A DNA stretch of 64,000 bases from Escherichia coli (GTDB taxonomy: Bacteria; Pseudomonadota; Gammaproteobacteria; Enterobacterales; Enterobacteriaceae), in assembly GCF_046105845.1 (NCBI RefSeq), contig NZ_CP151004.1, one strand, 5' to 3'. Both the position numbers and the translations under genes were made by a program. Below, piece after piece: positions 32,660-32,857 of the stretch. A model generated the notes under the pieces. That model saw only the letters and a program-made list of their open reading frames with translations, did no database searches and was not told where the DNA came from. Position 1 is the first letter of the stretch. Each line of letters opens with the position of its first letter.

Positions 32660-32694
32660 AGGGCGCGCATATTAACTTTGTAACGTCATAGAGT

Positions 32695-32855
32695 CAAAGA
32701 AAAAGGCAGCCTGTGGTTGCCTTTTGCCAATAATTCGCACACATTGCGGGTTACTGCTTTATTTTCGTTCAGTGCTGATAACGAACATCAACCTGCAAAA
32801 CGAAGCGCATAGTTTAAAATGGCTATCATCAATACGCTATATCTGATGGAAAAAA
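32695..32855 (-). ncRNA. sraB: Candidate small RNA SraB (approximate boundaries) in yceD-yceF intergenic region
   Basis: From memory, SraB maps between yceF and yceD in K-12. Sequence shows a hairpin (aaggcagcc...ggttgcctt, ~32701-32728) with flanking A/T runs consistent with a minus-strand intrinsic terminator. Ends not determinable from sequence. Confidence 0.3.
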
Positions 32856-32857
32856 AT

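Follow-up and report, generated by a model that had tools for sequence, protein, structure and literature searches.

Within the window, by which we mean the whole 64,000-nucleotide stretch of Escherichia coli DNA analyzed here, the divergent genes yceD and yceF are separated by 198 bp (32660–32857). This is the gap size given in a preliminary description of the region, and it matches the yceD boundary at 32659 and the yceF start at 32858. The product of yceF is the Maf-family m7GTP pyrophosphatase, a nucleotide house-cleaning enzyme. The yceD–yceF stretch is 100% identical to the E. coli O157:H7 chromosome NZ_AP018488.1, and 5424 complete E. coli genomes carry the locus, out of 5426 searched. 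The annotated features are as follows.

32138–32659, minus strand: yceD, from the list of open reading frames and the RefSeq annotation
32696–32864, minus strand: the small RNA SraB as annotated in K-12 and modeled by Rfam, 169 nt, from the RF00077 match and identity to b4418
32858, plus strand: annotated start of yceF, used in RefSeq and in K-12

The longest yceF open reading frame begins at 32819, as opposed to the annotated start at 32858. This in-frame ATG would extend YceF at its N terminus to 207 aa in E. coli, but we reject the extension as very unlikely to be translated: outside E. coli, a 1-nt difference in the length of an A-run puts the ATG out of frame in every sequence but that of C. 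koseri.

SraB between yceD and yceF

We scanned the whole window against Rfam, as the preliminary description had proposed for this interval, and found that the minus strand from 32864 to 32696 matches SraB (RF00077), at 209.8 bits where the gathering score is 130 bits (E = 6.8e-44). The match is full-length, covering model positions 1–169 of 169. In the K-12 reference record, the ncRNA sraB (b4418) is annotated at 1146589..1146757, between yceF and yceD and on the yceD strand, and the window RNA is identical to it at 168 of 169 bases, the sole differing base (window 32783) lying in the loop of the central hairpin. The geometry is likewise the same in both sequences: sraB overlaps the start of yceF by 7 nt and leaves 36 nt to the yceD ATG. 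Thus, the position that the preliminary description had assigned to SraB is borne out by the full-length family match, by b4418 at the homologous K-12 position, and by a published Northern blot validating SraB as a discrete transcript (Argaman 2001, as cited in PMC7967276). The interval of 32660–32857 to which the candidate had been assigned does contain SraB in the gap, but the annotated RNA extends 7 nt beyond its right boundary, to 32864.

The window RNA shares sequence, position, strand, terminator and a full covariance-model match with SraB (pke20/PsrD; RF00077, b4418), and differs from it in nothing of substance, being one base apart. We conclude, with a probability of about 0.93, that the minus-strand gene running in the direction of yceD is this known enterobacterial sRNA, ending at the intrinsic terminator at 32725–32696. 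The presence of SraB at the yceD–yceF gap is already known, having been described in 2001 and entered in both Rfam and the K-12 annotation; SraB has also served as a model ProQ ligand, and the identification carries little weight as a discovery. The automatic RefSeq annotation of the O157:H7 chromosome NZ_AP018488.1, whose locus at 2561–2758 is identical to that of the window, has no sraB feature. This is an annotation gap and not a biological difference, and automatic RefSeq annotation outside K-12 leaves out sraB.

Two further RNA elements were matched by Rfam elsewhere in the window. The RNase E 5′ UTR autoregulatory element rne5 (RF00040) gave a full-length match at 34725–35061 on the plus strand (260 bits), upstream of rne, and the PyrC leader (RF02372) a match at 56767–56816 on the plus strand (68.7 bits vs 50).

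Homologues were collected using a search pattern lying in the second hairpin of the RNA, with one genome per species, a search that did not reach Klebsiella or Yersinia. Among the 41 loci returned, 23 were chance matches in unrelated taxa, which were ignored; the remaining 18 were enterobacterial, comprising Escherichia, Salmonella arizonae and diarizonae, many Citrobacter and one bin labeled Raoultella. A full-length RF00077 match stood beside the same neighboring genes in all 18 of these fetched loci, and K-12 and the fetched Escherichia, Salmonella and Citrobacter loci share one layout, in which SraB occupies the yceF–yceD gap and is oriented like yceD. Two observations concern individual loci of this set. 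In the metagenome-assembled genome labeled uncultured Raoultella sp. (L037:4592-4759), the SraB region is nearly identical to that of the Citrobacter braakii/freundii group, a hint that the assembly is mislabeled or mis-binned. In one Citrobacter sp. (L024:10396-10478, minus strand), a marginal match to naRNA4 (RF02564; 60.8 bits vs 59.5) lies about 600 nt from SraB; the Rfam scan of the whole window gave nothing above threshold for naRNA4.

Structure and 5′ end of the RNA

The alignment used for comparative analysis holds 19 sequences; column counts were made on 17 full-length rows and pair counts on 17 distinct sequences. The features relevant to structure and to the 5′ end are the following.

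32764–32804, minus strand: central hairpin, RNA positions 61–101; pairing kept, sequence variable
32730–32754, minus strand: second hairpin, RNA positions 111–135, from the Rfam structure
32696–32804, minus strand: short SraB, 109 nt, from 5′-end mapping in K-12 and Salmonella
32811–32816, minus strand: putative −10 element (TAAACT) for transcription from 32804, which it precedes by 7 nt; downstream sraB promoter
32870–32875, minus strand: TAAAAT resembling a −10 element, located in the yceF coding sequence ahead of the annotated 5′ end (32864); Escherichia only

The consensus structure pairs 92.7% of alignment cells, compared with 35–42% when the partners are slid. Six pairs carry changes on both sides, and five of them fall in the central helix, where the hairpin keeps only 12 of its 41 columns invariant and five of the nine upper-helix pairs show compensatory changes. 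The structure of SraB is conserved, with covariation in the central hairpin. The second hairpin has eight pairs that are 100% paired, six of them never varying, an invariance that is partly a matter of ascertainment because the search pattern lay there. Both 3′ hairpins are invariant and are therefore uninformative on pairing, and the 3′ 60 nt of SraB as a whole are invariant and carry no covariation signal. This invariance stems in part from the way homologues were searched, and another part may be due to two elements that occupy the same DNA, the distal yceF promoter and the −35 element of yceD.

Published mapping places the 5′ end of SraB well inside the annotated RNA. Re-analyzed primary-transcript data for K-12 give a start at 1146649 (PMC7967276, Suppl. 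Table S1), equivalent to window position 32804, and in Salmonella SL1344 the start was mapped to 1231270 (PMC3963941, Table S8); the two starts share a single alignment column. The annotated 5′ end at 32864 falls inside yceF, and the mapped start is 60 nt downstream of it. The first nucleotide of the resulting 109-nt form is at the very base of the central hairpin, and this RNA folds into three clean hairpins, with an MFE structure equal to the centroid (−33.1 kcal/mol, z = −2.86). The 169-nt fold, in turn, is poorly defined (z = −1.92, MFE frequency 0.01). The putative −10 element TAAACT has one variable column among 17 species, the variant being TAAAAT.

According to a different reading, the 169-nt RNA starting at 32864 is the functional form and is antisense to the ribosome-binding site and start codon of yceF. 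In its favor, E. coli has a good −10 element (TAAAAT) 5 nt ahead of 32864, the original description (as cited in PMC7967276) gave a product of approximately 169 nt, and conservation is good over the first 60 nt, where 42 columns are invariant and the 5′ hairpin of the long form includes one covarying pair. However, the start maps to +61 in all re-analyzed K-12 data sets and in the Salmonella data, and the upstream TAAAAT, intact in all four Escherichia sequences, is absent from 15 of 15 non-Escherichia sequences, which carry AAGAAT, AAGGAT and similar strings instead (tallied on 17 full-length rows). The conservation of the 5′ 60 nt can also be explained by the sraB promoter together with the opposite-strand yceF promoter and 5′ UTR, and the fold of the long form scores less well than that of the 109-nt form. 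We consider a functional 169-nt form unlikely. Because mapped starts, promoter conservation and the cleaner fold agree, we take the 109-nt form as probably the main, conserved SraB; an Escherichia-specific long form may exist in late stationary phase. By extension, the 169-nt entry in the catalogues probably begins 60 nt too early at its 5′ end, which affects structure models and target predictions made from the long form.

The terminator and the yceD promoter

At the 3′ end of the RNA, SraB and yceD are juxtaposed through the following features.

32701–32725, minus strand: terminator hairpin, from the Rfam structure line and the fold, with 10 of 10 pairs invariant (17 distinct sequences)
32696–32704, minus strand: U-rich 3′ tail UUUUUCUUU, its first four U paired with the A-run, from sequence and fold
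32661–32697, minus strand: yceD promoter (TTGACT at 32697..32692, 17-nt spacing, TAATAT at 32674..32669, discriminator GCGCGCC, start at 32661), from the promoter scan and the Salmonella start

On the minus strand, 32725..32701 reads AAAAGGCAACC-ACA-GGCUGCCUUUU and is followed by UCUUU to 32696. Four basal A-U pairs of the stem couple the A-run to the beginning of the U-tract and support a G+C core with one A·C mismatch, and the tail has 8 U in 9 positions. The preliminary description had placed a hairpin with flanking A/T runs at approximately 32701–32728, and we find it within a few bases of that interval, preceded by an A-run and followed by the U-rich tail to 32696. Its suggestion of a minus-strand intrinsic terminator that ends a short transcript holds as well, the hairpin being the 3′ end of the SraB family match. 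The distance to the yceD start, estimated there at about 40 nt, is 36 nt when counted between the final U of the tail (32696) and the yceD ATG (32659). The hairpin at 32701–32725 is missing from the output of a simple terminator scan, probably because the A·C mismatch breaks the stem, and the fold and the covariance model were therefore used instead. Folded alone (33 nt), the hairpin gives −10.8 kcal/mol with z = −1.74, and 13 of 200 shuffled sequences are as good, so that by itself it is modestly better than chance. Its significance derives from context, namely its position at the 3′ end of a full-length SraB match and its invariance, save for one loop base, across 19 enterobacterial sequences. 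Hairpin and tail together are the intrinsic terminator of SraB.

The yceD promoter follows immediately, with its −35 element abutting the SraB U-tail. In Salmonella, the yceD start maps to 1231413 and the ATG to 1231415, behind an identical promoter string (PMC3963941, Table S1); transferred to the window, this start corresponds to 32661 and yields a 2-nt leader. From the end of the terminator into yceD, only 3 of 50 columns vary among 17 species. The yceD ATG has no Shine-Dalgarno sequence upstream, since the mRNA appears to be near-leaderless. The discriminator consists entirely of G+C, and the yceD-rpmF promoter could be of the stringent type.

A continuous yceD 5′ UTR, which the preliminary description had named as the alternative to a separate sRNA, is weakened by Salmonella data, in which yceD transcription starts 2 nt ahead of the ATG, and by a nearly invariant promoter 3′ of the terminator. 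In a fuller version of this alternative, the region serves yceD-rpmF as a 5′ leader or attenuator, and SraB is either a by-product of transcription stopping there or a source of read-through that expresses yceD and rpmF. Such a role would fit the location of SraB on the yceD strand, ending 36 nt before the ATG, the lack of a Shine-Dalgarno sequence, and a table for early-stationary-phase Salmonella that gives the SraB start at 1231270 as the primary start of yceD. On the other hand, yceD has its own mapped Salmonella start and a near-invariant TTGACT-17-TAATAT promoter beyond the terminator, the terminator combines a G+C core with a strongly U-rich tail, and ProQ binding requires a terminated 3′ end (PMC5393179, PMC7367173). 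The absent Shine-Dalgarno sequence, moreover, suits a near-leaderless mRNA better than a long leader. With a separate promoter right after the terminator, SraB is therefore not simply the leader of yceD, and we regard the leader or attenuator reading as quite improbable, even though some read-through from SraB into yceD may occur. The SraB terminator would keep sraB transcription out of the yceD-rpmF operon and thereby insulate the promoter of that operon.

We reject the proposal that the locus codes for a small protein and not a non-coding RNA as very improbable. A 31-aa open reading frame is present on the minus strand at 32788..32883, and a 16-codon frame runs from an AUG in the second hairpin, but the former begins upstream of both mapped starts and consists mostly of promoter-region sequence, the stop codon of the latter lies past the terminated 3′ end, and variation in the central hairpin tracks base-pairing and not codon positions. 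Finally, a chance inverted repeat or protein-binding palindrome at which no transcript ends would accord with the modest folding score of the isolated hairpin and its absence from the simple terminator scan, but is practically negligible given the Rfam E-value, the constancy of the hairpin across genera, and the published Northern blot and ProQ data on SraB.

ProQ binding and overlap with the yceF leader

SraB was strongly enriched in ProQ co-immunoprecipitation and binds ProQ in vitro; the E. coli RNA forms a 1:1 complex with the protein, characterized by HDX and SAXS, in which it contacts the FinO domain, the linker and the C-terminal domain (PMC5393179). The FinO domain of ProQ recognizes a terminator hairpin at its base together with four or more U, and an A-rich run 5′ of the terminator stem is a mark of ProQ ligands that disfavors Hfq (PMC7367173). 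SraB carries this mark, in that its G+C stem is preceded by AAAA, which is paired with the four U at the head of the tail. The flanking A/T runs noted in the preliminary description are thus exactly the signature of a ProQ ligand, and the A-run, hairpin and U-tail would serve both as terminator and as ProQ-binding module. SraB was also detected in an Hfq cross-linking study. With other ProQ-class RNAs, such as the cspE 3′ UTR, SibA-E, IstR and RaiZ, SraB shares a high degree of structure, a terminator and an A-rich run that pairs with the U-tail. In contrast to Sib and IstR, it lacks a toxin partner, and RaiZ differs in having a demonstrated target, none being reported for SraB.

On the opposite strand, the transcription starts of yceF define two leaders.

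32753–32857, plus strand: long yceF 5′ UTR from the distal start at 32753 (K-12 1146700), 104-nt leader; transferred start
32828–32857, plus strand: short yceF 5′ UTR from the proximal start at 32828 (K-12 1146625); transferred start

The K-12 starts at 1146625 and 1146700 are taken from PMC7967276 (Suppl. Table S1). Their Salmonella counterparts lie at 1231246 (proximal) and 1231321 (distal), the latter with an identical upstream sequence. The two yceF promoters are interleaved with sraB: the −10 element of the proximal promoter (TAAAAT, 32815–32820, plus strand) overlaps the opposite-strand sraB −10 element, and the distal promoter sits opposite the second hairpin and terminator of SraB. Because the distal start falls inside sraB, the long leader is perfectly complementary at 32753–32804 to SraB nucleotides 1–52, an antisense overlap that we computed from the coordinates as 52 nt. 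The term 'overlapped ncRNA' has already been applied to sraB (PMC7967276). In starting inside the 5′ UTR of a divergent gene, SraB resembles the cis-antisense pairs at divergent promoters represented by OxyS/oxyR P2 and MicC/ompN with its long UTR (PMC7967276). It differs from pairs of the OxyS/oxyR P2 and MicC/ompN type in that the relation between SraB and yceF is known here as an overlap only, with yceF transcripts low or undetected in one data set.

These features would allow SraB nucleotides 1–52 to pair as antisense with the long yceF 5′ UTR with the assistance of ProQ. Tentatively, we propose that short SraB could act as a ProQ-assisted cis-antisense regulator of yceF through this 52-nt pairing with the long leader, a possibility that we place well short of even odds. 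The idea is weakened by one K-12 data set in which yceF transcripts could barely be detected (PMC7967276), and our literature search returned no report of a change in yceF mRNA or protein upon removal of SraB. On a par with this antisense reading, SraB may act in trans. A search of the literature yielded no target demonstrated for SraB, either in cis or in trans; the reports it returned link SraB to egg-albumen resistance in S. Enteritidis (as cited in PMC7967276), describe SraB reads 9.5-fold higher in a ppGpp0 Salmonella strain, which cannot make ppGpp (PMC3963941), and describe an approximately 5-fold induction in E. coli after replication inhibition.

The 52-nt overlap between SraB and yceF is the most concrete lead to the mode of action of this sRNA. 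If the proposed regulation were true, a single region of 198 bp would tie a nucleotide house-cleaning enzyme, an sRNA and a ribosomal operon to the growth state of the cell.
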